Assembly: GCA_902514295.1 (NCBI GenBank)
Contig: CABXQE010000002.1
Coordinates: 9,938 to 73,937, forward strand
From: an uncultured SAR86 cluster bacterium
GTDB taxonomy: Bacteria; Pseudomonadota; Gammaproteobacteria; Magnimaribacterales; Magnimaribacteraceae
Reading direction: 5' to 3'
Length of the DNA: 64,000 nucleotides
Each line of letters starts with the position of its first letter. Positions within the stretch are counted from its first letter, which is position 1. A program made the translations under genes and the position numbers. Under the pieces are notes generated by a model, which worked only from the letters and a program-made list of their open reading frames with translations, ran no database searches and had not been told where the DNA came from. Shown piece by piece: positions 21,645-35,384 of the stretch.

Positions 21645-22580
21645 ATGAAAGACTTTAAAAATAAAATTGCCGTGGTCACTGGAGGTGGCACAGGGATGGG
21701 AAGGGAACTTGTTCTGCAGTTAGCAGAAGAAGGATGCGACGTAGCTATGTGCGACGTTATTGCTGAAAACATGGAAGAAACTTTTGAACTTGTGACCAAA
21801 CAATCACCAGATGTATTAGTTACGAAACACACATGCGATGTATCTGATGAAGAACAGGTCTTAAAATTTAAAGATGAAGTTTTATCGGAGCATAAAACTG
21901 AAACTATAAATCTTCTTTTTAATAATGCCGGAATAGGAGGGGGAGCAAGTTTTGTAACTGGCTCAAGAGAAGAATGGGAAAGGTGTTTCGCTGTTTGTTG
22001 GTACGGGGTTTACTATTGCTCTCGAGCATTTATCCCTCATATTGTTTCCAGTGAAGAAGGGCATGTGGTCAATACAAGCAGCGTTAATGGATTTTGGGCT
22101 AGTCTAGGAGGAACGCCTCATACTTCCTACTCTGCCGCCAAATTTGCTGTAAAAGGTTTTAGTGAATCTTTAATAGATGATTTCCGTTTGAATGCTCCTC
22201 ATGTCGGCGTTTCAGTAGTGATGCCAGGACACATAGGTACTTCTATAGCAATTAATACCGGAAAAATATTAGGGGGAGAAAGGACAGAGGAGGATTGGGA
22301 AATGGTGAAACAGAATATGATAAAACTTGGAGCCCCTGTTCACAATCAGTCCATAGACCAGATCAAACAGATGATACAAGAAAGGACAGATTCTTTTGCT
22401 GAGACGGCTCCCACTTCTTCATCTGAAGCTGCAAAAGTAATTTTGGATGGAGTTAAAGATAATAAATGGAGAATATTGATCGGCGACGATGCTAAAGCAA
22501 TTGATGAAATGGTAAGGAGAGATCCTGAAGAAGCATATAATATTACCTTTCAAGGAGATAAAAGAGAGGAAGCAGGATGA
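21645..22580 (+). CDS. SDR family oxidoreductase, long form (311 aa)
   Basis: TGGGTGMG, NNAG, YSAAKFAVKGFSESL, plus a roughly 90-aa C-terminal extension. Confidence 0.88.
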   Translation: MKDFKNKIAVVTGGGTGMGRELVLQLAEEGCDVAMCDVIAENMEETFELVTKQSPDVLVTKHTCDVSDEEQVLKFKDEVLSEHKTETINLLFNNAGIGGGASFVTGSREEWERCFAVCWYGVYYCSRAFIPHIVSSEEGHVVNTSSVNGFWASLGGTPHTSYSAAKFAVKGFSESLIDDFRLNAPHVGVSVVMPGHIGTSIAINTGKILGGERTEEDWEMVKQNMIKLGAPVHNQSIDQIKQMIQERTDSFAETAPTSSSEAAKVILDGVKDNKWRILIGDDAKAIDEMVRRDPEEAYNITFQGDKREEAG

Positions 22581-23488
22581 AAACTTTTAAAGATAAAGTA
22601 GCTGTCATAACAGGAGCTGGTTCTGGAATGGGTCGTTACTTAGCGGTTTTATTAGCGAAAGATGGAGCTGACGTGGTTGTTTGTGACGTCAATCAGGAGA
22701 CCTTAAATGAGACTGTGGAAATGTTAAGGCAATACAACGTATCTGTATCTTCTCATATTTTGGACGTAGCTGATAAGGAAGCCATCCAAGCTCTGCCTGA
22801 AAAGGTTATCGAGCAACACGGCAAAGTTGATTTAGTTTTTAATAATGCAGGTGTAACCGCTGGGTCTCATTTTAAAGATATGGATGAAGAAAATTGGGAT
22901 TGGGTGATGGGTATAAATTTAGAAGGTGTAGTTAATAGCACCAGAGCATTTATACCTCATATGATTGATAGACCTGAAGCAGCGATAGTAAATACTTCTT
23001 CTATTTTTGGGATGGTCGCAGTTCCGGGTCAAACTGTTTACCACGCTACTAAATTTGCGGTAAGAGGATTCACTGAAAGCCTTGCTATGGAAATGTCTCA
23101 ATCTAATCCTAATTTACAAGTCCATTGTGTGCATCCCGGTCATATAGGTACCAACATTGCTGCTACTGCAAGAATGGATGAAGATGAATTTAACAAACAG
23201 TTAGAAGAGCAAGATAAACTTCCCAGTATATTTACACGCAACGCTCCAAAAAGTTTAGAAGAAATGGGCGATCAATTCAGAGAGGGAGGAATGCACCCCA
23301 GTAGAGCTGCAAGCATTATTTTAAATGGGGTAAAGAAAAACAAAAGCAGAATATTTATCGGTTTAGATGCAAAATTATTAGACCTTTCGCAACGCTTATT
23401 TCCTAAGCATTATCATAAAACTTGGCCATTATTTATGCCATTGATGATGATGTTCAGAGACAAGAAACCCCTTAAATCACTTGATTAA
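22577..23488 (+). CDS. SDR family oxidoreductase, long form, paralog of the preceding gene
   Basis: TGAGSGMG, NNAG, YHATKFAVRGFTESL, HPGHIGTNIA (the neighbour has MPGHIGTSIA). ATGA start/stop overlap. Confidence 0.88.
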   Translation: MKTFKDKVAVITGAGSGMGRYLAVLLAKDGADVVVCDVNQETLNETVEMLRQYNVSVSSHILDVADKEAIQALPEKVIEQHGKVDLVFNNAGVTAGSHFKDMDEENWDWVMGINLEGVVNSTRAFIPHMIDRPEAAIVNTSSIFGMVAVPGQTVYHATKFAVRGFTESLAMEMSQSNPNLQVHCVHPGHIGTNIAATARMDEDEFNKQLEEQDKLPSIFTRNAPKSLEEMGDQFREGGMHPSRAASIILNGVKKNKSRIFIGLDAKLLDLSQRLFPKHYHKTWPLFMPLMMMFRDKKPLKSLD

Positions 23489-23839
23489 TTTTTTATACGT
23501 CGAGTAGTTAGGGTTATCTACGGCTATTTTATTCTTTGATAGAAGTATCAATAGATTTTTCAATTCTTCATCTGATAAATCTAAGTCTCCATTCTTAATC
23601 AGGTTCGAAAGTTCTTTGGTTGTTAGATCATCTGATTTGATGATATTTGACATAACCTTAATAACTTCTTCAGACAGTTGTTCCCCTTGATCAATCTCCC
23701 TCTGAACCATACCAAGTACATTATTCGTAATTCTTAATTTAAATGCTAAATGCGGAGGTAATTCATCTTTAATTTTAGTATCTAAGAAATCCATCACTGC
23801 TTTTATTAGTTCACTACTAGTTGGTCTATCAAAAATCAT
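23477..23839 (-). CDS. small helical protein coupled to the APH-fold kinase (LvaB-position / DUF6285-like)
   Basis: 120 aa. The start overlaps the kinase stop (TAATG) and follows GGAGGTGA. The family name is from memory of small proteins that follow this kind of kinase. Confidence 0.55.
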   Translation of the reverse strand: MIFDRPTSSELIKAVMDFLDTKIKDELPPHLAFKLRITNNVLGMVQREIDQGEQLSEEVIKVMSNIIKSDDLTTKELSNLIKNGDLDLSDEELKNLLILLSKNKIAVDNPNYSTYKKLIK

Positions 23840-24822
23840 TATTCACCTCCTAAAAATAATAGATCGACAATATCTATTTCAGTTTCAGAAACCCTTCTGC
23901 CAATTGCTGCCTTTTCTATGGAATTGATTGTTCTGTTTAAATGCGCGTAAGCTTGAATGAGACAAATTACTCCCCATCTGAATGTTCCAAATACTTGCCA
24001 ACACTTCACCATTTCTTTATTGACCTTTAACTTGCTAATCGAATTGTAACCTTCAAGCAAGTCTTCTAGTTCTCCAAAACCCCCTACAACTTTATCGTTT
24101 TTACCGAATCGCCAAGAGTTACCACAGACCCAACCTAAATCTTGAAGAGGGTTTCCTATATGGGCCAGTTCCCAGTCTATGATTGATTGAAGCCCCTCTC
24201 CATTAACAATTATGTTTCCTAACCTAAAATCTCCATGCACTAGACTTTCTTGAAAATTACTAAAGTCTTGTTCTTTTAACCAAAGATAAGCGTATTCAAA
24301 AACAGGGGAGGGTTGCTCAAAAGATTGATAGGTTGCGTAGAGGTCTTCAAGTTGATCTTCAGCTGGTTTTTTAGGTAAGAAGGAGAAATTATCAATATCA
24401 ACATTGTGAACTTTAGCAATAGCTTCACCGCATTGATAAGCCAATAAAGGAAGTGCCTTTTTATATTCTTTGTCTCTTAGTATTTTTCTTGCAATGGTTT
24501 CTCCTTCAACAAAATGCATTATGTAAGAGTCTCCTAACTCTTCTTCGTTCTTAGAGACTGCTAATATTATTGGTACGGGTGCACCTGCTTTAATTACTTC
24601 CTTTTGTATTCTGGCTTCGTCTGCAGTTTTTATTGCAAGAGGCCCTTCTATACCTGAGCCCCTTCTAAGAATCATCTTTGTAGTTTGTTTAGCGTTAGAA
24701 ACTTCAAATTTCCAGATCTCTTTAGAGGCGCCTCCTGTAAGAGGCTCAAGATTAGAAACTTTTCCTTCTATACCTACTTCAAGTAGTTTTTTGGAAAGCG
24801 ATGATGCTAATTCTTCTTGCAT
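23839..24822 (-). CDS. phosphotransferase (aminoglycoside-phosphotransferase/APH fold), LvaA / ACAD10-11 kinase-domain-like
   Basis: Catalytic loop HGDFRLGNIIV (HxDxxxxN) and IDWELAH metal-binding Asp motif; 327 aa. Confidence 0.85.
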   Translation of the reverse strand: MQEELASSLSKKLLEVGIEGKVSNLEPLTGGASKEIWKFEVSNAKQTTKMILRRGSGIEGPLAIKTADEARIQKEVIKAGAPVPIILAVSKNEEELGDSYIMHFVEGETIARKILRDKEYKKALPLLAYQCGEAIAKVHNVDIDNFSFLPKKPAEDQLEDLYATYQSFEQPSPVFEYAYLWLKEQDFSNFQESLVHGDFRLGNIIVNGEGLQSIIDWELAHIGNPLQDLGWVCGNSWRFGKNDKVVGGFGELEDLLEGYNSISKLKVNKEMVKCWQVFGTFRWGVICLIQAYAHLNRTINSIEKAAIGRRVSETEIDIVDLLFLGGE

Positions 24823-26033
24823 TAATTAGATTCTAAGCTGGCATCTCTTTCACCAAAATCCCATCCAGCACCATTATTCTGATAGTTCTTTAAAATTCTC
24901 CTAGCAACAGATTGGACATGAACCTCATCGGGTCCGTCATAAATCCGAGCCTCCCTAGCATGCCTGTACATTAAACTAAGAGGAGTATCGTCAGTAAGAC
25001 CTTTAGCTCCATGAACTTGTATGGCTCTATCTATAACGTTATGAACCATTTTCGCACCCACAACCTTAATCATCCCTATCTCAATTCTTGCGTCATCTCC
25101 TTGATCTATTCTTTTTGCAGCATCTAGAGTAAGTTGCCTACTAGCTTGAATTTCACAAGCACTATCAAATACAAATTTTTGTAACAATTGCTTATCAGCC
25201 AGTGAGCTTCCAAACGCTTCTCTTTCATGCATTCTTAAACACATAAGGTCAAATGCTCTTTGAGCTTGACCCAACCATCTCATGCAATGAAAGATTCTTC
25301 CTGGACCTAACCTCCTTTGAGCGATGAGGAACCCTTGACCTCTAGGACCCAATAGATTTTCTTCTGGTACTCTTACGTTATCATAATCGACTTCATAATG
25401 GCCTCCGTGACCACCGTGTATCCCTAATACAGGAGTATCTCTTACGATTTTGTACCCAGGATTATCTGTAGGAACAATAATCATACTGAAAGCTCCGTGG
25501 CTAGGAACATCTAATTCAGTTCTACACATTACCGTTGTGTAAGTAGCTCCGGCAGCTCCAGAGGTAAACCATTTTCTTCCATTAATCACCCACTCATCAC
25601 CTTCCAAAATTCCTGTGGTTTGAAGTTGAGTCGGGTCAGAACTAGAAATGTCTGGTTCAGTCATTCCAAAACTTGGAAAGATTTCTCCAGCAACTAGCGG
25701 TTCTAGGTATTCATCGCGCCATCTTTTAGAAGCAAATTCTCTTAACATGATTGAATCTTGCAAAGAGTGAGTCCCTAAGGCAACCATAGCGCTAGAGGAC
25801 CTTCCAATTACCTCATTTATGTATACGTACTCCATAAAAGGCATCCCTTGGCCACCTATATCTTCAGGATGTCCGAGTGCCCATAGAGAATTATCTTTGG
25901 CCTTTTGCATTAATTCTTGCATTTTCTTTGTAGACTCATCATCTCTCTTATGAAGAATCTCTTCCGCAGGATAAACTTCGTTTTCTACGAATTCTTTAAC
26001 TTCTTTTCTTACTTTCTTCCAATCTCTACTCAT
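24822..26033 (-). CDS. acyl-CoA dehydrogenase, FadE2 / ACAD10-11 subfamily (LvaC-like)
   Basis: ACAD fold. The C-terminal RIYDGPDEVH is the variant typical of the FadE2/ACAD10/ACAD11 clade. I chose the ATG at 26033, preceded by GGAGGG; the track starts at the TTG at 26045. Confidence 0.88.
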   Translation of the reverse strand: MSRDWKKVRKEVKEFVENEVYPAEEILHKRDDESTKKMQELMQKAKDNSLWALGHPEDIGGQGMPFMEYVYINEVIGRSSSAMVALGTHSLQDSIMLREFASKRWRDEYLEPLVAGEIFPSFGMTEPDISSSDPTQLQTTGILEGDEWVINGRKWFTSGAAGATYTTVMCRTELDVPSHGAFSMIIVPTDNPGYKIVRDTPVLGIHGGHGGHYEVDYDNVRVPEENLLGPRGQGFLIAQRRLGPGRIFHCMRWLGQAQRAFDLMCLRMHEREAFGSSLADKQLLQKFVFDSACEIQASRQLTLDAAKRIDQGDDARIEIGMIKVVGAKMVHNVIDRAIQVHGAKGLTDDTPLSLMYRHAREARIYDGPDEVHVQSVARRILKNYQNNGAGWDFGERDASLESN

Positions 26034-26045
26034 TGTTCCCTCCAA

Positions 26046-27782
26046 CTAAAATTTTATAGGCTTTTTAAATCCTTTTAACTTCATTCCTTTTCTTGAAATC
26101 TCTATATCTGTCTCTCCGTTAAGCACGTTTTCATTAAATTTATAAGTAACCTGATAGTCTCCTTTTAAACATGACCTATTATATTGAGAAGATTTCTTTT
26201 GAGTCTCTCCTATATTCTTTAAATATTGATTATATTTATTTTTAGTAACTAAGCTTTTCATTTTTATTTGAGTCTCTTCAGGGGAAAGAATAAAAGCCGA
26301 AGCATTGTTTCCTCCAAATCCTTTGGCATTTAAGAAACACCCTTTATAAAAATTTTGTTCTTCCGTTTTATCTTCAAGAAGAATGTCTAAGTTTTCGGAG
26401 TAAACATCATCGGCTAAAGTGTCGGTAGAATGAATCCCAGGTATTATTCCTTTATTCCAAGTTCCAAGTGAAGCTATAAGCTGATCTCCTGAAGCCGGAG
26501 CCATGCTATGACCGAGATAACTTTTTATTGCCGTAATAGGCCAGTTCTTTATGCCAAAAGTAGTTGCTATCTCATTAAGTATGTGTGACTCAGTAGTCCT
26601 ATTTGCAGGAGTTCCAGTTCCATGAGCATGTACAAATGTATTTTGCCTTAAGAGCTTAAGGCCTAAATCTTTCTCGGCGTCTGCCGCGCATTTAGCCATG
26701 GTTATATAATTACCTACACCCGGTCCACTAATTGAGCTTTTATGTCCATCTGAATGAGAGTGAACTGAAGCAACAGAGCCAAAAATGTCAGCTCCGAGTT
26801 CTATCGCAAGTTTAGCTTCCATTAGGATTACAAATTGAGATGATTCACCTAAAACCATACCAGCATTATTACCAAAAGGGCGACAAGCTCGAGTTTGAAT
26901 AGGCCCTGAATCAATTGATTCTCCATTTGAAGCTTGAAGTTCAAGCATTCTCTTATCATCAGATAAGGCAGACATGGCAAAGAAACCATCTATTATTTCA
27001 GGTGTTATAGGGGCTTCTGCTGCTCCTACAATAGATACTTTAGAGCTACCTGATTCTATAGCTTCTTTTCCCATTTGAAGGTTATAAAGGAAAGTTGCGC
27101 AAGCCCCTACGCTATGACCGGTTCTTCCTACATTACCAAGTACATATGCGTTAATGAAATCTGCAGACATTTCAACTAACCCTAAAGCCAAATTTTTTGA
27201 GCTTGCCCTTGAACCCTTGATTCTAGATTGCATAAGACCACCAAAACCAAAACTATCCAATTGACCAATTGCAGCACCACTGAATACTGAAACTTCATCA
27301 GGATTTATTTTTTCCTGAACTTCTTCCCACTTAAATCCAAGCTGACCAATGGCATCACTCATGCCAAAAATAGTCATTTGTAAGGCTTTGGGGTGCTGTC
27401 TTGCGGGGTAATAAGTTGATGGATCAAAACCTTTGGGTAGTTGGCCAGCAGCACTGGCTTTTATTTGATCTAGGATCACACCATCTGGATCATAGACTTC
27501 CTTATCAATTTTTCGAATGAAACAGTCTTTTCTAATTGAGGACAAATTTTCAAGTAAATATTCTTTAAGATTAATGGAGTCTCCGGAAACCGTCTCCCAG
27601 CCACTACCAACAGTTTCTATCTTGCCTTGTAAAATAGCTAAATCTTGAAGAACTTCTAATTGTTCTTTTTCTTGAAGTGAATTAAATACTAGATTTTTAT
27701 ATCCTAAGAAGTTTGAAGACCTTCCCGATGAGTTAATACCTCCGAATCCTGAGATTACTGCTAAAGGTTTATTCTTGCTCAT
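26046..27782 (-). CDS. beta-ketoacyl synthase, KAS I/II catalytic triad, enlarged FabY-like form (578 aa)
   Basis: Cys-His-His triad contexts GACATF, HAHGTGTP, GHSM. The N-terminus AVISGFGGINSSGRSS and the roughly 65-aa extra N-terminal length (active-site Cys near residue 228 by my count) resemble P. aeruginosa FabY from memory. Confidence 0.8.
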   Translation of the reverse strand: MSKNKPLAVISGFGGINSSGRSSNFLGYKNLVFNSLQEKEQLEVLQDLAILQGKIETVGSGWETVSGDSINLKEYLLENLSSIRKDCFIRKIDKEVYDPDGVILDQIKASAAGQLPKGFDPSTYYPARQHPKALQMTIFGMSDAIGQLGFKWEEVQEKINPDEVSVFSGAAIGQLDSFGFGGLMQSRIKGSRASSKNLALGLVEMSADFINAYVLGNVGRTGHSVGACATFLYNLQMGKEAIESGSSKVSIVGAAEAPITPEIIDGFFAMSALSDDKRMLELQASNGESIDSGPIQTRACRPFGNNAGMVLGESSQFVILMEAKLAIELGADIFGSVASVHSHSDGHKSSISGPGVGNYITMAKCAADAEKDLGLKLLRQNTFVHAHGTGTPANRTTESHILNEIATTFGIKNWPITAIKSYLGHSMAPASGDQLIASLGTWNKGIIPGIHSTDTLADDVYSENLDILLEDKTEEQNFYKGCFLNAKGFGGNNASAFILSPEETQIKMKSLVTKNKYNQYLKNIGETQKKSSQYNRSCLKGDYQVTYKFNENVLNGETDIEISRKGMKLKGFKKPIKF

Positions 27783-27863: not shown

Positions 27864-29399
27864 ATGCACCCGGGCATCAACGGAAAAAAATTTCCAAATA
27901 AACCTGCTTTAATAATGAACGGAAGCGGCAAGGTAGTTACTCATGGAGAGTTAAATGATTTATCTAATCAAGGAGCTCAGCTTTTTAGGTCTTTAGGTTT
28001 AGTTCCAGGTGATTCCATAGCGATCATGCTAGAGAACCATTTTTTGTTCTTTCCGATAATATTTGCAGCTTGGCGAAGCGGACTTAGGTACACAGCAATA
28101 AGTTGGAGGCTCCAGCCGGATGAAGTTGAATACATTGTTAGAGATTGTGAAGCTAAAGTTTTTATAACCTCTAAATTTTTAGAAGAAACTGCTTTGAATT
28201 TAGATTCCTCTCTCAAAGATGTTCATAAGTTTATGCTTGATGGCTCGACTAATAATTTTCTTTCTTATGAAGAATCTATCGCCTTACAGCCTGAAGATCC
28301 CATTTCTGATGAGTGTGTTGGAGGTCCAATGCTCTATTCTTCAGGAACTACAGGCAGACCAAAGGGAGTTAGTAGAGAATTAAGTTTAGACCCTTTGCCC
28401 TATTCTAAAGAAAATGGAGATCCAAGCTTATCTAGGGTTCTATTACTTTATGGAGCTAACGAAGACAGTATCTACCTTTCTCCAGCGCCTATGTATCATT
28501 CCGCACCATTGAACTTCTGCACTGCATTTCTAGCTGAAGGCTCTACTTGCGTAATTTTAGAGAAATTTGATGCTGAAGGTGCTTTGCAAGCAATAGAAAA
28601 ACATAAGGTAACGCATTCGCAATGGGTACCAACTATGTTCGTAAGATTTTTAAAATTTGACCCTTCAGTCAGAACTCAATTTGATTTATCTAGTCATCAA
28701 GTTGCAATACACGCTGCCGCACCTTGCCCTATAGAAGTTAAAGAGCAAATGATAGATTGGTGGGGCCCTATACTTTATGAATATTACGCAGGAACAGAGT
28801 TTAATGGCATGACTTTTATAAATTCTGAGGAATGGTTAAGTCATAAAGGTTCTGTTGGGAAATCTCTTTTTGGAGCACTAGACATTCTTGATGAAAATGG
28901 AGAGCAACTGCCTCCAGGAGAAACCGGCGGTGTTTACTTTGGAGGGGAAACGGCTACAACCTTTAAATATCATAATGATGAAGAAAAAACTAAAGAAGCA
29001 ATGACTAAACAAGGTTATAGCACTTTAGGGGATGTGGGTTATCTAGATGAAGAAGGATATTTATATCTAACTGATCGTAAGTCTTTCATGATTATTTCTG
29101 GAGGAGTAAACATTTATCCCAAAGAAACAGAAGATGCTCTAGTAATGCATCCTAAAGTAGCTGACGTAGCCGTTTTTGGGGTTCCAAACGATGAAATGGG
29201 TGAAGAAGTTAAGGCGGTAATTCAACCTGAGAATATGGCTGATGCAGGTCCAGATTTAGAAGCTGAACTGATGGCTTACTGCAAAGAAAAAATCTCCTCC
29301 GTTAAATGCCCTAAATCCATTGATTTTGAAAAGGAGTTACCTCGGCACCCAACTGGTAAACTTTACAAGCGTCTTTTAAAAGACAAGTATTGGCCTTAA
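27864..29399 (+). CDS. acyl-CoA synthetase (AMP-forming adenylate-forming enzyme)
   Basis: AMP-binding signature YSSGTTGRPKG, YGxTE-like YYAGTEF, GDVGYLDEEGYLYLTDR. Confidence 0.9.
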   Translation: MHPGINGKKFPNKPALIMNGSGKVVTHGELNDLSNQGAQLFRSLGLVPGDSIAIMLENHFLFFPIIFAAWRSGLRYTAISWRLQPDEVEYIVRDCEAKVFITSKFLEETALNLDSSLKDVHKFMLDGSTNNFLSYEESIALQPEDPISDECVGGPMLYSSGTTGRPKGVSRELSLDPLPYSKENGDPSLSRVLLLYGANEDSIYLSPAPMYHSAPLNFCTAFLAEGSTCVILEKFDAEGALQAIEKHKVTHSQWVPTMFVRFLKFDPSVRTQFDLSSHQVAIHAAAPCPIEVKEQMIDWWGPILYEYYAGTEFNGMTFINSEEWLSHKGSVGKSLFGALDILDENGEQLPPGETGGVYFGGETATTFKYHNDEEKTKEAMTKQGYSTLGDVGYLDEEGYLYLTDRKSFMIISGGVNIYPKETEDALVMHPKVADVAVFGVPNDEMGEEVKAVIQPENMADAGPDLEAELMAYCKEKISSVKCPKSIDFEKELPRHPTGKLYKRLLKDKYWP

Positions 29400-30063: not shown

Positions 30064-31524
30064 TTAACCTGCTTTTTTAAACTTCAAATCTGAATCTTCT
30101 ATACTTTTAAATCTGACTTGAAAAAGATCTTTTAGATAATTTTGAGTGTTTATCCAAGGGTCTTTTGAACCTTGCTTGGGTAGCGTGTGAGCAACTCTTT
30201 GTATGTAACCAGAAGTTAAATCTAGAAAATCGCTATCGGCAGCTACGTCTTCACCAGCTTCGGGACAAAAATAATCCATGCCTTTTTTGTCTAGAAGATT
30301 TATCAACCTACAAGCGTACTCACTGGTTAGATCAGCTCCCAATGTCCATGAAGCTGTTGTGTATCCAAATGTCGCCACAAGATTAGGCACATCACTAAAC
30401 ATCATGGTTTTGTATTGTATTTTTTTTGAAATATCTAAAGTTTCATTATCAATCTTAATATCTATTCCGTTTAAGAGCCTCATATTCAGACCTGTCGCTG
30501 TAATAATAATGTCAGCTTCGAGTACTTTACCCGAATCCAGTTTAATTCCTTTTGTTGAGAACTCATCTATGGTGTCTGTAACCACTGAAACCTTTCCGGA
30601 ATTTATAGCTTCAAACATGTCACCATTCGGTACTAAACACATGCGTTGATCCCAAGGCATATATTTAGGCGTGAAGTGTTTATCGATATCGTAATCAGGG
30701 CCTAAAAGATCTTTAACTCCATTAATTAGCATCTCTTTATATTTAAGTGGTTTTTTCTTAACCTGAGATACAAAAAAACGACCCAAAAGAATATTTTTCC
30801 ATCTAACCAGGAAATAGCCGATCTTGTCTGTAGTAAATCTTTTAAGAAATTCATCTAATCCACTTCGGTCTGGTGCAGCCATGTAGTAAGTAGGTGATCT
30901 TTGTAGCATGGTGATGTGTGATACTTTCCCTGCCATCGAGGGAATAATAGTTACAGCTGTTGCGCCACTTCCAACCACAACCACTTTCTTGTCAGAATAA
31001 TCCAGATCTTCAGGCCATTTCTGAGGGTGAATAATTTGACCTTCAAAGTTATCTCTACCTTTAAATTCAGGAGTATATCCTTCATCATAATTGTAATACC
31101 CCCCACATAAATAAAGAATATTACAACTCATAACTTCCACAGAATTGTTAGATTGATCTTCTACTTCTAGACTCCAAAGAGCTTCGCTAGTATTCCAAGA
31201 GGCACTAATTACTTTCTTTTGAAATTGAATTTTTTCTTCAAGGTTATTTTCTTCTACCGCTTCTTTTAGGTATTGAATAATTGATGGGCCATCAGCAATT
31301 GTTTTAGGGTCTGTCCAGGGCTTAAATCTAAAACCCATGGTGTGCATATCAGAATCCGATCTTATGCCTGGGTACTTGAATAGATCCCAAGTTCCTCCAA
31401 TATTCTCTCTTCCTTCAAGAATGGTGAATGTTTTTTGAGGACAGGTTTTTTGAAGATTATAGGCAGCACCAATTCCTGAAATACCTGCTCCAACAACGAC
31501 AACGTCTTTATGATTTATTTCCAT
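30064..31524 (-). CDS. type I Baeyer-Villiger (flavin-containing) monooxygenase
   Basis: FAD motif GAGISG, BVMO fingerprint FEGQIIHPQKWP (FxGxxxHxxxWP), NADPH motif GSGATA. Confidence 0.88.
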   Translation of the reverse strand: MEINHKDVVVVGAGISGIGAAYNLQKTCPQKTFTILEGRENIGGTWDLFKYPGIRSDSDMHTMGFRFKPWTDPKTIADGPSIIQYLKEAVEENNLEEKIQFQKKVISASWNTSEALWSLEVEDQSNNSVEVMSCNILYLCGGYYNYDEGYTPEFKGRDNFEGQIIHPQKWPEDLDYSDKKVVVVGSGATAVTIIPSMAGKVSHITMLQRSPTYYMAAPDRSGLDEFLKRFTTDKIGYFLVRWKNILLGRFFVSQVKKKPLKYKEMLINGVKDLLGPDYDIDKHFTPKYMPWDQRMCLVPNGDMFEAINSGKVSVVTDTIDEFSTKGIKLDSGKVLEADIIITATGLNMRLLNGIDIKIDNETLDISKKIQYKTMMFSDVPNLVATFGYTTASWTLGADLTSEYACRLINLLDKKGMDYFCPEAGEDVAADSDFLDLTSGYIQRVAHTLPKQGSKDPWINTQNYLKDLFQVRFKSIEDSDLKFKKAG

Positions 31525-32552: not shown

Positions 32553-35384
32553 ATGGGGAAAATTATGAAAATTAAGTTAATTGCCTACTTGGCAACCTTT
32601 TCTTTTCTTTTTTTTAACGCTTCGTTTGTTTTTTCAGCTGATGATGATGAAGATGCTGACGAAGTGGTGGTGACTGGATCTTATATCTCAAGATCCAACC
32701 AAAATAAATCTGTTCCTGTTGATGTAATTAGTTCTGATGAGTTGAATGAGCAAGGTAATCCTAGCATCACTGATCTAATTTTAAATCTGCCTTCTATGTC
32801 TGGTTCACATAACCAGCAAGATCAGTTTCAAGGCAGTGGAGTCGCAACTGGAATGAAGAACATAAATATAAGAGGTATGGGTTCTGATAGAGGGCTAGTA
32901 CTTCTTAATGGAAAAAGAATTGCAGCTGCTGGAGTTAGATCTTCAAAGTCTGCCGTTTATCCAGTTGATGTAGGAAATTTTCCTATGATAGCTATGGAAA
33001 GGTTAGAACTTCTTAAAAACGGTGGTGCTGTTACTTATGGTTCAGATGCCGTAACTGGAGTGCTTAATTTCATTACTAGAAAAGGTTTTGACGGGTTTGA
33101 AATTTCTGTTAACCACTCTGACTACGATGGAAGTGATGACGGAGATCAAAATCTAGGTTTTATTTGGGGAACTGCCAGCGGAGGTAATTCCTTAATGATG
33201 GCTTTTGAATATGACAAGCGAGGCAGATTACCAGTATGGAAAAGAAGCTTTGCTGACTATAGTTCACCAAGTGGTTGGCCGTTAGGTATATCGTCTTTTG
33301 GAAACCCAGGTGCTTACGGCACAGCCAAAGGTTGGCCAGGTACCTTGTACGGTGGTTTAACACCAGATCCATTGTGTGGATATTCTTCTGAATTCACCAG
33401 TTCTTTTGCATTAAGTCTTGGTCGATGTGGTTATAACTACACACCATTTTTTAATTTAATAGATGAACAAGAAAGACTAAAATTCTTTACTCAATTTGAA
33501 TTCCAAGTTGATGACAGTACAACAGTTTATGGAGATTTCCTTTTTTCAAAATTAGAAGGTTGGTACAACACATCTCCTAGTTTCCCTCACACAAATCCTG
33601 GCTCTTCAAATTATTGTACAAATACAGATGACGTACTAAGTTGTACTTCAGCAATTCCTTACTTTAATTTTGTGCCCCTTCATAACCCAGGTGCAATAGA
33701 CTTTTTGGCTGGTTTATCTCAAGAAAAAAGAGATGAATTTACTGCAGCTGGAGGTATTCAATGGTGGGGAAGAACTTTGGCGGTTGCCGGTCCTTCTCAA
33801 AGTGGTAAACGTTTCCATGAAACGGCGCGTTTCTTGGTAGGAGTAGTTAAAAGGTTAGGCGATGTTGAAATGGACGCTTCAATGTCATACACAAACCACA
33901 CCGTAGATGGATTTACTTATGATCCTTTAGCGGCGAGAGTACAGGACTCATTATCAGGTTTAGCTGGTCACGGTTGTCCTAGAGTAGGTGATGACCCTTG
34001 GTCTTCGGCTAATGATGCTCTTAGAGGCGATAATGCCTTAGGTTGTTATTACTATAATCCGTTTGGTTCTGCTATTAATGCAACACCGGGAAGTGCACTT
34101 TATAACGACCCTTCAGTTAAGAAATATTATGACGGTTTATCTTCTGGAGTAACTCAAGTTGAACAACTTGTTTCAGAAGTTATCTTTACCGGAGAATCAG
34201 ATATGGAATTAGCCGGTGGTAATGTTTCATGGGCTGCAGGAGCACAATACAGATGGTGGGATAGTAAGTATGACCCTACTGGAGATAATAGAGTAGATGG
34301 TCCTCAGAGATCACCTTTTGTATTCCTGGGCGTATCAACTAATAGTTACATTGAAACAAGAGTGCATTCACTCTTTGGTGAATTGAACCTACCTGTTTCT
34401 GATTCTACGCAAGTTGAGTTAGGAATAAGGCATGAAGACTATGGTGCTGACACAGTTACTAAACCTAAGTTAGCTATAATTTCAGAACTTAGTGACAAAG
34501 CGACATTTAGAGCTTCGTATGAGCAAACTTTTAGAGTACCTACAATGCCTACTCAAGAAACAACTTCTCTTGAGCTCTACGCTCCAGCTGGTGAATATAT
34601 TCAAATTAAGACACCAATTCCAACTGCCCTAGGACCTGAAGAATCTACTAATATAGGTTTAGGGTTCATATTTAGACCTGTAGATGGAATGACAGTTAAT
34701 TTAGATTATTATTCCTTAGCTTTAGAAGGGCCATTTAACAGAGAAGCTGCAACTTGTGCTTGCTCAGTTAAAATGACAGCAGACGGTACTGTTTATGACG
34801 CTGCAACAGACACGCCTCAAGCCATAACAAGCATAATTGCTGAGTTAATTAACGGGGATGATGTAGACACTGCAGGAATAGATCTAGAAGTTAATTATTC
34901 ACATGTTAGTGATGTAGGCGTATGGTCTGTTGGAGGAAATATGAATCATATTTTAGAATATGAAGTTTCAGGAACAGCAGATGGAAGCACTTACGACGCA
35001 GCTGGACTGTATAATTTAAGATCTACAGTTCTTCCTATTGAAGTGAGATCAATGCCTGATCTTAAGATGAATGCTTACGTAGGACTTCTAACTAATGCTG
35101 GATACAATGCGAGGTTGTATCTTAGATTTATTGACGAAGTTAAGATTCCTTCCACGTTCGATTCTATTTCATCTTTTCCTGGTATGGATTCGATAGATGA
35201 TCACATGACTTATGACTTTCACGTTAGCAAGTCTGTAATGGATGACAGTATGGATATAACTTTGTCAGTTATTAATTTAACAGATGAGGATCCTCCGATG
35301 GCTCCTCATGAGTTAGCTTATGATGCTTATACCCATAACCCTCTAGGAAGAATATTAAAGGTAGGATTTAGATATAACCTTTAG
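32553..35384 (+). CDS. TonB-dependent outer-membrane receptor (943 aa)
   Basis: Signal peptide, SADDDEDADEVVVTGS TonB-box region, plug motifs (IRGMGSDRGLVLLNGKR; GAVTYGSDAVTGVLNF). Alternative start at 32565. Confidence 0.9.
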   Translation: MGKIMKIKLIAYLATFSFLFFNASFVFSADDDEDADEVVVTGSYISRSNQNKSVPVDVISSDELNEQGNPSITDLILNLPSMSGSHNQQDQFQGSGVATGMKNINIRGMGSDRGLVLLNGKRIAAAGVRSSKSAVYPVDVGNFPMIAMERLELLKNGGAVTYGSDAVTGVLNFITRKGFDGFEISVNHSDYDGSDDGDQNLGFIWGTASGGNSLMMAFEYDKRGRLPVWKRSFADYSSPSGWPLGISSFGNPGAYGTAKGWPGTLYGGLTPDPLCGYSSEFTSSFALSLGRCGYNYTPFFNLIDEQERLKFFTQFEFQVDDSTTVYGDFLFSKLEGWYNTSPSFPHTNPGSSNYCTNTDDVLSCTSAIPYFNFVPLHNPGAIDFLAGLSQEKRDEFTAAGGIQWWGRTLAVAGPSQSGKRFHETARFLVGVVKRLGDVEMDASMSYTNHTVDGFTYDPLAARVQDSLSGLAGHGCPRVGDDPWSSANDALRGDNALGCYYYNPFGSAINATPGSALYNDPSVKKYYDGLSSGVTQVEQLVSEVIFTGESDMELAGGNVSWAAGAQYRWWDSKYDPTGDNRVDGPQRSPFVFLGVSTNSYIETRVHSLFGELNLPVSDSTQVELGIRHEDYGADTVTKPKLAIISELSDKATFRASYEQTFRVPTMPTQETTSLELYAPAGEYIQIKTPIPTALGPEESTNIGLGFIFRPVDGMTVNLDYYSLALEGPFNREAATCACSVKMTADGTVYDAATDTPQAITSIIAELINGDDVDTAGIDLEVNYSHVSDVGVWSVGGNMNHILEYEVSGTADGSTYDAAGLYNLRSTVLPIEVRSMPDLKMNAYVGLLTNAGYNARLYLRFIDEVKIPSTFDSISSFPGMDSIDDHMTYDFHVSKSVMDDSMDITLSVINLTDEDPPMAPHELAYDAYTHNPLGRILKVGFRYNL

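Follow-up and report, generated by a model that had tools for sequence, protein, structure and literature searches.

A probable LvaA-LvaB-LvaC-type gene trio for the entry of 4-hydroxy acids into beta-oxidation in SAR86 bacteria

Three adjacent minus-strand genes in a 64,000-nucleotide (nt) stretch of SAR86 DNA (the window; 36.7% GC, with all coordinates given on the forward strand) encode an acyl-CoA dehydrogenase (ACAD) of 403 aa (24822-26033), a kinase of the APH fold of 327 aa (23839-24822), and a small protein of 120 aa (23477-23839). We consider it likely that these three genes are the SAR86 version of the bacterial LvaA-LvaB-LvaC system, and that they admit 4-hydroxy acids (and 4-oxo acids, after reduction) to beta-oxidation. 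The 4-hydroxy acids are beyond the reach of the standard beta-oxidation cycle (PMC12440821). In the levulinate operon of Pseudomonas putida, as it is described in PMC6692424, PMC9399607, and PMC11342911 (citing Rand 2017), LvaA is the kinase, LvaB its 12-kDa partner, and LvaC the ACAD. The SAR86 trio is a member of this known kind in an ecologically important lineage rather than a new system, and nothing in it is categorically new. The observations behind this reading are the family memberships of the three proteins, the conservation of their active sites, an invariant linkage between the kinase gene and the small gene, and RNA contigs that run over both gene junctions.

The small protein belongs to the Pfam family DUF6285 (PF19802): it scores 62.9 bits, where the cut-off is 28.1 (E 4.7e-17), and covers positions 2-91 of the 91-position profile. 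As the LvaB reference we used WP_015270461.1, a protein encoded on a Pseudomonas plasmid (not the KT2440 protein) and annotated in NCBI records as "4-hydroxypentanoyl-CoA kinase subunit LvaB"; its 90% cluster includes proteins of the P. putida group to which NCBI gives this name too. The gene lies within a complete lva-type operon (lvaR-A-B-C-D-E-F-G-like), which runs in the order PrpR-type regulator, phosphotransferase, lvaB, ACAD, short-chain dehydrogenase/reductase (SDR), acyl-CoA synthetase, DUF485, and acetate symporter. WP_015270461.1 also belongs to DUF6285 (E 4.8e-24), and a profile made from SAR86-seeded relatives of the 120-aa protein matches it at 4e-26. As far as sequence comparison goes, it takes profiles to see that the small protein and LvaB are homologous. 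Neither protein matched an LvaB or DUF6285 model in NCBIfam, even at E 10; because that collection gives no matching model, the NCBI name LvaB was probably assigned by a rule that does not use a hidden Markov model (HMM).

The DUF6285 family comprises 627 clusters at 50% identity. In an alignment of 92 diverse members only R47 and P110 are invariant, and P6, L11, N40, L42, L77, I81, L93, L97, D108, and Y112 are nearly so, with a C-terminal motif D-N-P-x-Y. Among the best 150 of the 627 representative clusters (lengths 34-161 aa), there were no fusions of DUF6285 to a kinase, to an ACAD, or to any other protein. Sequence and profile searches of the PDB with DUF6285 returned nothing below E 0.05, and hence no solved structure for any member. 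A first AlphaFold2 (AF2) run on 14 SAR86-only sequences was poor, with a predicted local distance difference test (pLDDT) score of 59, but the 92-sequence alignment gave an all-helical small protein (helices 8-26, 29-63, 74-82, 91-108, and 113-119) with pLDDT 93 and a predicted template modelling (pTM) score of 0.79. Foldseek found no match to this model in the PDB (best E 4.8, template modelling score 0.3).

The kinase matches Pfam APH (E 2.7e-30) and has the residues expected of an active enzyme of this fold. H196, D198, and N203 (in HGDFRLGN, 196-203), D216-W-E (in IDWE, 215-218), the beta3 Arg R53 (in ILRR, 51-54), and the alphaC Glu E69 are all present and invariant in the kinase alignment; the roles of these residues in APH-fold kinases (HxDxxxxN, DWE, beta3 Arg, and alphaC Glu) are taken from PMC13596139 and PMC12440821. 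With the kinase in the LvaA position of the Pseudomonas lva operon it shares 30% identity in a full-length alignment of 304 aa (147 bits). More generally, bit scores separate two classes of kinase. Those linked to DUF6285 (from SAR86, Thermus, Sulfitobacter, the Pseudomonas lva operon, and Cupriavidus) score 116-226 bits among themselves, and the kinases related to the N-terminal part of ACAD10/11 (relatives of PDB 3dxp) score 179-476 bits within their class, as against 49-77 bits between the classes. The SAR86 kinase scores 135-214 bits to DUF6285-linked kinases versus 50-59 bits to four kinases of the ACAD10/11 type, and reaches the kinase domain of ACAD11 itself at E of about 1e-10. Judged by these scores, it is of the LvaA lineage and not of the kinase type that is fused in ACAD10 and ACAD11. 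Its predicted role is that of the catalytic subunit of a 4-hydroxyacyl-CoA kinase.

The ACAD exceeds the cut-offs of all three Pfam domains of its fold (Acyl-CoA_dh_N, _M, and _1). The best PDB match is mouse ACAD11 (8v3u; E 1.8e-72, 248 bits), followed by the ACAD10/11-like structure 4hr3 (236 bits), compared with 182 bits for the best classical ACAD; the protein is also 35% identical to the ACAD in the LvaC position of the Pseudomonas lva operon. Residues R241, R246, H249, R252, and D366 align with R626, R631, H634, R637, and D753 of ACAD11, so that a catalytic Asp replaces the usual Glu and the HCMR helix keeps the R/H/R residues that bind phosphate. Mutagenesis has tied D753, R626, H634, and R637 of ACAD11 to the turnover of 4-phosphoacyl-CoA (PMC12440821). 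From this conservation we predict that the SAR86 ACAD is a FAD-dependent 4-phosphoacyl-CoA phosphate eliminase that yields 2-enoyl-CoA.

An earlier, sequence-only reading of this DNA had called the locus a split ACAD10/11-type module, and pointed to the motifs RIYDGPDEVH, HGDFRLGN, and IDWE. All three motifs are there, the first at ACAD residues 363-372, and the placement of the ACAD in the ACAD10/11 clade is borne out by the bit scores and by the Asp and R/H/R site. As the kinase is not of the ACAD10/11 type, the label strictly fits the ACAD half only. The same reading had likened the small open reading frame (ORF) to LvaB and DUF6285, which the Pfam match and the DUF6285 membership of the NCBI-named LvaB uphold, and had made its case depend on conservation of that ORF next to the kinase in other genomes, which is what we found.

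Conservation was surveyed in 102 loci from many phyla, 80 of them seeded with a profile of LvaA-type kinases and 22 with a DUF6285 profile (the latter from a 10-sequence subset of the alignment). A DUF6285 gene lies directly downstream from an LvaA-type kinase gene, on the same strand, in 99 of the 102, and the other three end at contig edges. Broken down by seed, the DUF6285 ORF comes right after the kinase in 78 of the 80 loci found with the kinase profile (drawn from SAR86, Alphaproteobacteria, Acidobacteriota, Syntrophaceae, Myxococcota, and Actinomycetes), and in 21 of the 22 found with the DUF6285 profile the gene just before it is the kinase. Neither annotation nor an HMM scan showed a DUF6285 ORF at four loci of ACAD10/11-type kinases. 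The comparative rule is that a DUF6285 gene accompanies LvaA-type kinases without exception and does not accompany those of the ACAD10/11 type.

The two classes are not mutually exclusive within a genome. In Cupriavidus metallidurans CH34 (NC_007974.2, about 2269890-2274092), an ACAD10/11-type kinase and an LvaA-type kinase are encoded only ~3 kb apart, and Sulfitobacter pontiacus carries both on one replicon (NZ_CP049346.1); single replicons that hold both imply that the classes coexist and do not replace each other. Two kinases fall between the classes, and in both cases the next gene, overlapping by 4 nt, is a small ORF: one of 118 aa in Rhodococcus sp. ZPP pRZP2 (locus L100, 4939-5295) and one of 157 aa in Sulfitobacter alexandrii (locus L101, 4945-5418). 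Neither small ORF matched Pfam or the DUF6285 profile, and they may encode very divergent or analogous partner proteins.

Within SAR86, the matches come mostly from uncultured single-cell and metagenome assemblies, and the closest genomic matches of the small protein are in single-cell genomes, metagenome-assembled genomes, and the cultured strain HIMB1674. Across this SAR86 clade the block is conserved: an acyl-CoA synthetase gene on one side, then a FabY-type beta-ketoacyl synthase (ketosynthase), the ACAD, the kinase, and DUF6285, then two SDRs. Strain HIMB1674 (locus L008) has this block as well. The small protein is present in 14 of 14 loci, at full length and without frameshifts (56-98% identity); in distant SAR86 it falls to 56-65%, the fastest-evolving member of the block, versus 88% for the ACAD. 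A second SAR86 clade (loci L023-L027, e.g., L023 3785-6301) has the same trio, with an ACAD 82% and a kinase 48% identical to those described here, a DUF6285 gene, and 4-nt overlaps. There the trio sits directly behind prfB-lysS and before a DUF411 gene, and lacks the ketosynthase, synthetase, and SDR genes. That the three genes are kept together in this second setting implies that they move as a unit between genomic contexts.

Outside SAR86, the order ACAD-kinase-DUF6285 recurs in Halieaceae and Spongiibacteraceae, with contiguous and overlapping genes and ACADs that are 68-73% identical, and the order kinase-DUF6285-ACAD is found in Pseudomonas and Sulfitobacter. Many alphaproteobacterial kinase-DUF6285 loci have no ACAD10/11-type ACAD within 5 kb. 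On plasmid p2 of Cupriavidus pinatubonensis (locus L099, 2983-8916), the pair is flanked by a dapA-like gene and a gene for indolepyruvate ferredoxin oxidoreductase and has no ACAD in its vicinity, a context that suggests that the pair is also used outside 4-hydroxyacyl-CoA catabolism. The invariant core is the kinase plus DUF6285, and the ACAD is sometimes part of the unit.

The four minus-strand ORFs of the window run head to tail, from ketosynthase to ACAD to kinase to the 120-aa ORF. The ACAD begins with the ATG at 26033, which GGAGGG precedes (a TTG at 26045 opens the longest ORF), and a spacer of 12 nt separates this start from the ketosynthase stop. The sequence-only reading had reported that the next two junctions are TAATG overlaps, the second with a Shine-Dalgarno sequence, and both read exactly so. 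At 24820-24824, base 24822 is common to the ACAD stop TAA (24824-24822) and the kinase ATG, and in reading the sequence we found nothing like a Shine-Dalgarno upstream of the kinase start. At 23837-23853, base 23839 is common to the kinase stop TAA (23841-23839) and the small-ORF ATG, and GGAGGTGA stands directly upstream of that ATG, within the codons for the C-terminal LGGE of the kinase. We do not follow that reading in taking this tight coupling as an argument for a stoichiometric complex. Among same-strand neighbor pairs in the window, 8 of 30 overlap and 15 of 30 are no more than 5 nt apart, so two successive overlaps are unremarkable for a streamlined genome, overlap alone is not beyond chance, and coupling is weak evidence. 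Because overlap is common in this genome, it is conservation that carries the argument.

On that measure the two junctions differ. The 1-nt overlap of kinase and DUF6285 is kept in all 14 orthologous SAR86 loci, as TAATG, TGATG, or TAGTG (with a GTG start), and GGAGG precedes the DUF6285 start in all 14 as well. The TAATG between ACAD and kinase is restricted to the closest relatives; in distant SAR86 it becomes TAAATG or TAGATG, in which the genes abut without overlap. Metatranscriptome contigs from four marine RNA libraries, at least 92% identical, span both junctions and are consistent with one transcript. A scan for promoters and terminators gave matches that were not above the shuffled expectation. 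At the far end, the DUF6285 gene and the second SDR gene (plus strand, 22577-23488) overlap convergently at their 3' ends by 12 nt (23477-23488), so that terminators have no space between them; related SAR86 loci (e.g., locus L002) are arranged likewise.

Two further sets of genes bear on the proposed pathway. The two SDR genes (21645-23488, plus strand; Pfam adh_short) are convergent with the module and adjoin it in 14 of 14 SAR86 loci. The acyl-CoA synthetase gene (27864-29399, plus strand; Pfam AMP-binding) is divergent from the operon and is kept in 12 of 14, and the remaining two contigs end before it. Within the Pseudomonas lva operon, the SDR shares 29% identity with the second SDR here, and the synthetase shares 26% with the one here. 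We take the SDRs as candidate 4-oxoacyl-CoA reductases in an LvaD-like role and the synthetase as the candidate activating enzyme in an LvaE-like role. With these candidates, the block would contain all the types of enzyme in the lva route.

In the scheme that we propose, the synthetase would make the CoA ester and an SDR would reduce a 4-oxo group to a 4-hydroxy group where needed. The LvaA-type kinase, as a heteromer with the DUF6285/LvaB subunit, would then phosphorylate the 4-hydroxyl using ATP, after which the ACAD would eliminate the phosphate via FAD, with D366 as the base and a pocket formed by R241, H249, and R252, to give 2-enoyl-CoA. The genes would be read from one mRNA. The kinase appears to have no ribosome-binding site of its own and would probably be translated by re-initiation at the ACAD stop, and the small subunit would be made near the kinase and in at least equal amounts, which fits the one-base overlap and the strong Shine-Dalgarno. 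The identity and chain length of the substrate, the physical complex of kinase and DUF6285 protein in SAR86, and the way in which DUF6285 acts are the parts of this scheme that we infer. Because the similarity of the synthetase and SDRs to their lva counterparts is generic, and no LvaR or LvaFG gene is nearby, the module is predicted to be a general entry point for 4-hydroxy and 4-oxo acids and not a levulinate operon; levulinate specifically is probably not the substrate.

Several points weigh against assigning the trio to the LvaABC system. The assignment is a prediction from sequence, and a direct pairwise BLAST of the 120-aa protein with LvaB is not significant (E = 1). As noted, gene overlaps are ordinary in this genome, and the RNA evidence, being contig-based, is compatible with DNA carry-over. 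The resemblance to LvaE and LvaD (26%-29%) is generic, and no regulator, LvaR-type or other, and no LvaFG/acetate-symporter-like gene was found among the neighboring ORFs scanned, from 16.5 to 35.4 kb. Finally, kinases of the ACAD10 class are reported to phosphorylate 1-O-alkylglycerols (PMC13596139), which means that kinases of this superfamily can have other substrates.

The last point leads to an alternative in which the kinase-DUF6285 pair acts on a different hydroxylated lipid or CoA ester (an alkylglycerol, for example) and adjoins the ACAD only through genome compaction. The alkylglycerol activity is found in prokaryotic ACAD10-class kinase domains as well, genes in these genomes are packed regardless of function (fabY is upstream here and lysS in the other SAR86 clade), and the contexts of kinase-DUF6285 pairs are varied. 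However, the SAR86 kinase is not of the ACAD10 class, and LvaA, its characterized relative, acts on 4-hydroxyvaleryl-CoA. The trio also stays together in two SAR86 contexts and in other marine Gammaproteobacteria, and an ACAD that keeps the residues for binding a 4-phospho group needs a kinase to supply its substrate. We regard a substrate of this other sort as quite unlikely. Less credible still, to the point where we give it hardly any weight, is that in SAR86 the 120-aa ORF is without a function of its own and persists as a conserved leftover or a translational spacer. Its rapid divergence, and our failure to find a fold match or known motif, would suit such a view, but the ORF is intact in every SAR86 locus and above the Pfam cut-off, its product is confidently modeled, its family is large and has two residues invariant in 92 diverse members, and the P. 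putida homolog is genetically required (PMC6692424).

A third possibility concerns what the small protein does. DUF6285 could be an adaptor that docks the free kinase on the ACAD tetramer, rebuilding the ACAD11 assembly non-covalently so that 4-phosphoacyl-CoA is channeled within a three-protein complex. In ACAD11 the kinase domains do make ordered contacts with the ACAD tetramer (PMC12440821), and in SAR86, Halieaceae, Spongiibacteraceae, and Thermus the genes for ACAD, kinase, and DUF6285 adjoin in that order and overlap. Yet at most kinase-DUF6285 loci beyond SAR86 no ACAD of the ACAD10/11 type lies within 5 kb, the C. pinatubonensis pair keeps quite different company, and bacterial ACAD10/11-type kinases are likewise split from their ACAD without having DUF6285. 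In addition, the pull-down reported in PMC6692424 is of LvaA with LvaB, not LvaC. The invariance of the kinase-DUF6285 core speaks for a subunit of the kinase and against an adaptor between kinase and ACAD, and we hold such an adaptor to be improbable; the three-protein complex suggested by the sequence-only reading finds nothing that places the ACAD in it.

That reading had also remarked that the role of the small protein is not understood in any system, and PMC6692424 (citing Rand 2017) agrees: it states that LvaB pulls down with LvaA and that deletion of lvaB abolishes growth on levulinate, and gives no mechanism. As a working guess, DUF6285 completes or stabilizes the acyl-CoA binding side of LvaA-type kinases. 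The hint is comparative. The position just before the alphaC Glu is Arg in ACAD10/11-type kinases and D, E, A, or Q in LvaA-type kinases, and molecular dynamics modeling puts an Arg neighboring the alphaC Glu on the CoA moiety (PMC12440821). We propose that DUF6285 may help to form or stabilize the acyl-CoA side of the active site. A bolder version, which we put forward only tentatively, is that DUF6285/LvaB marks a separate, heteromer-only class of 4-hydroxyacyl-CoA kinases, in which the small helical subunit would give in trans part of the acyl-CoA-binding or activating surface that ACAD10/11-type kinases have in cis. An example is the Arg next to the alphaC Glu, which is missing from LvaA-type kinases, and of the Arg residues of DUF6285 just one is invariant. 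On this view, constitutive expression behind housekeeping genes would let the module scavenge 4-hydroxy, 4-oxo, or lactone-derived acids from dissolved organic matter in SAR86 and related oligotrophic marine Gammaproteobacteria.

Comparison with known systems places the SAR86 module closest to the bacterial ones. The P. putida lva operon has the same three families, with the small gene directly after the kinase gene, and has a synthetase (LvaE) and an SDR (LvaD) next door. The gene order differs, being ACAD-kinase-small (C-A-B) in SAR86 and kinase-small-ACAD in P. putida. Compared with the canonical lvaRABCDEFG, SAR86 has no LvaR and no LvaFG, its SDRs and synthetase are on the other strand, and the module shares a transcript with the housekeeping fabY-type gene ahead of it. 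In Thermus thermophilus HB8 (pTT27, TTH_RS10075-10065), an ACAD, a phosphotransferase, and DUF6285 follow one another in the SAR86 order, with overlaps, and an SDR and an AMP-binding enzyme upstream; the kinase is 36% identical. Unlike in SAR86, this cluster is plasmid-borne, in a different phylum, and followed by a histidine phosphatase gene, which overlaps the end of the DUF6285 gene (locus L016, 6273-6926). A link between kinase and histidine phosphatase recurs in Pseudomonas citronellolis, where, according to PMC6692424, a histidine phosphatase is beside the LvaA homolog and LvaB is missing.

The mammalian enzymes ACAD10 and ACAD11 carry out, as PMC12440821 and PMC11342911 describe, the chemistry that we predict for SAR86, namely phosphorylation of 4-hydroxyacyl-CoA and then FAD-dependent elimination of the phosphate, and the ACAD domain of ACAD11 is the closest solved relative of the SAR86 ACAD, with an identical catalytic Asp and R/H/R site. 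The fused architecture, with the kinase N-terminal, is absent: in SAR86 a TAA stop divides the two ORFs, and the ACAD comes first. The kinase is of a different subfamily, without the Arg beside the alphaC Glu, and is accompanied by a DUF6285 subunit, which ACAD10 and ACAD11 lack. The stand-alone kinases of the ACAD10/11 N-terminal type (PDB 3dxp; Burkholderia pseudomallei) are, like that of SAR86, free-standing APH-fold kinases that adjoin ACAD and beta-oxidation genes, but are without a DUF6285 gene in four of four loci. A B. pseudomallei LvaA ortholog phosphorylates 4-hydroxyhexanoyl-CoA (PMC11342911), and in vitro this enzyme could take over from the kinase part of ACAD10; the passage describing that experiment (Paquay et al., PMC11342911) mentions no added partner protein.

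As for the ketosynthase (26046-27782, minus strand, 578 aa), the first gene of the shared transcription unit, it matches PDB 4cw4 (E 1.7e-150), has intact Cys-His-His motifs, and is co-linear with the module throughout this SAR86 clade and absent from the other. It is an apparent initiation enzyme of fatty-acid synthesis that shares a transcription unit with a catabolic module. We rejected fabY as a part of the pathway as unsupported, given that the module stands behind lysS in another SAR86 clade; a functional link is uncertain, and the ketosynthase is most simply a housekeeping neighbor that initiates fatty-acid synthesis. Also within 10 kb are genes for a flavin monooxygenase (FMO/Baeyer-Villiger-like; 30064-31524, minus strand) and a TonB-dependent receptor (32553-35384, plus strand). 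A Baeyer-Villiger route from ketones to lactones could be a source of hydroxy acids.

Assignment to the LvaABC kind gives a concrete function to three SAR86 genes that are unnamed or called "hypothetical protein" in the records, and predicts that SAR86 would route 4-hydroxy acids into central metabolism. For the family as a whole, the rule that joins LvaA-type kinases to DUF6285, together with a confidently predicted orphan fold, provides a framework in which the role of LvaB becomes directly testable.

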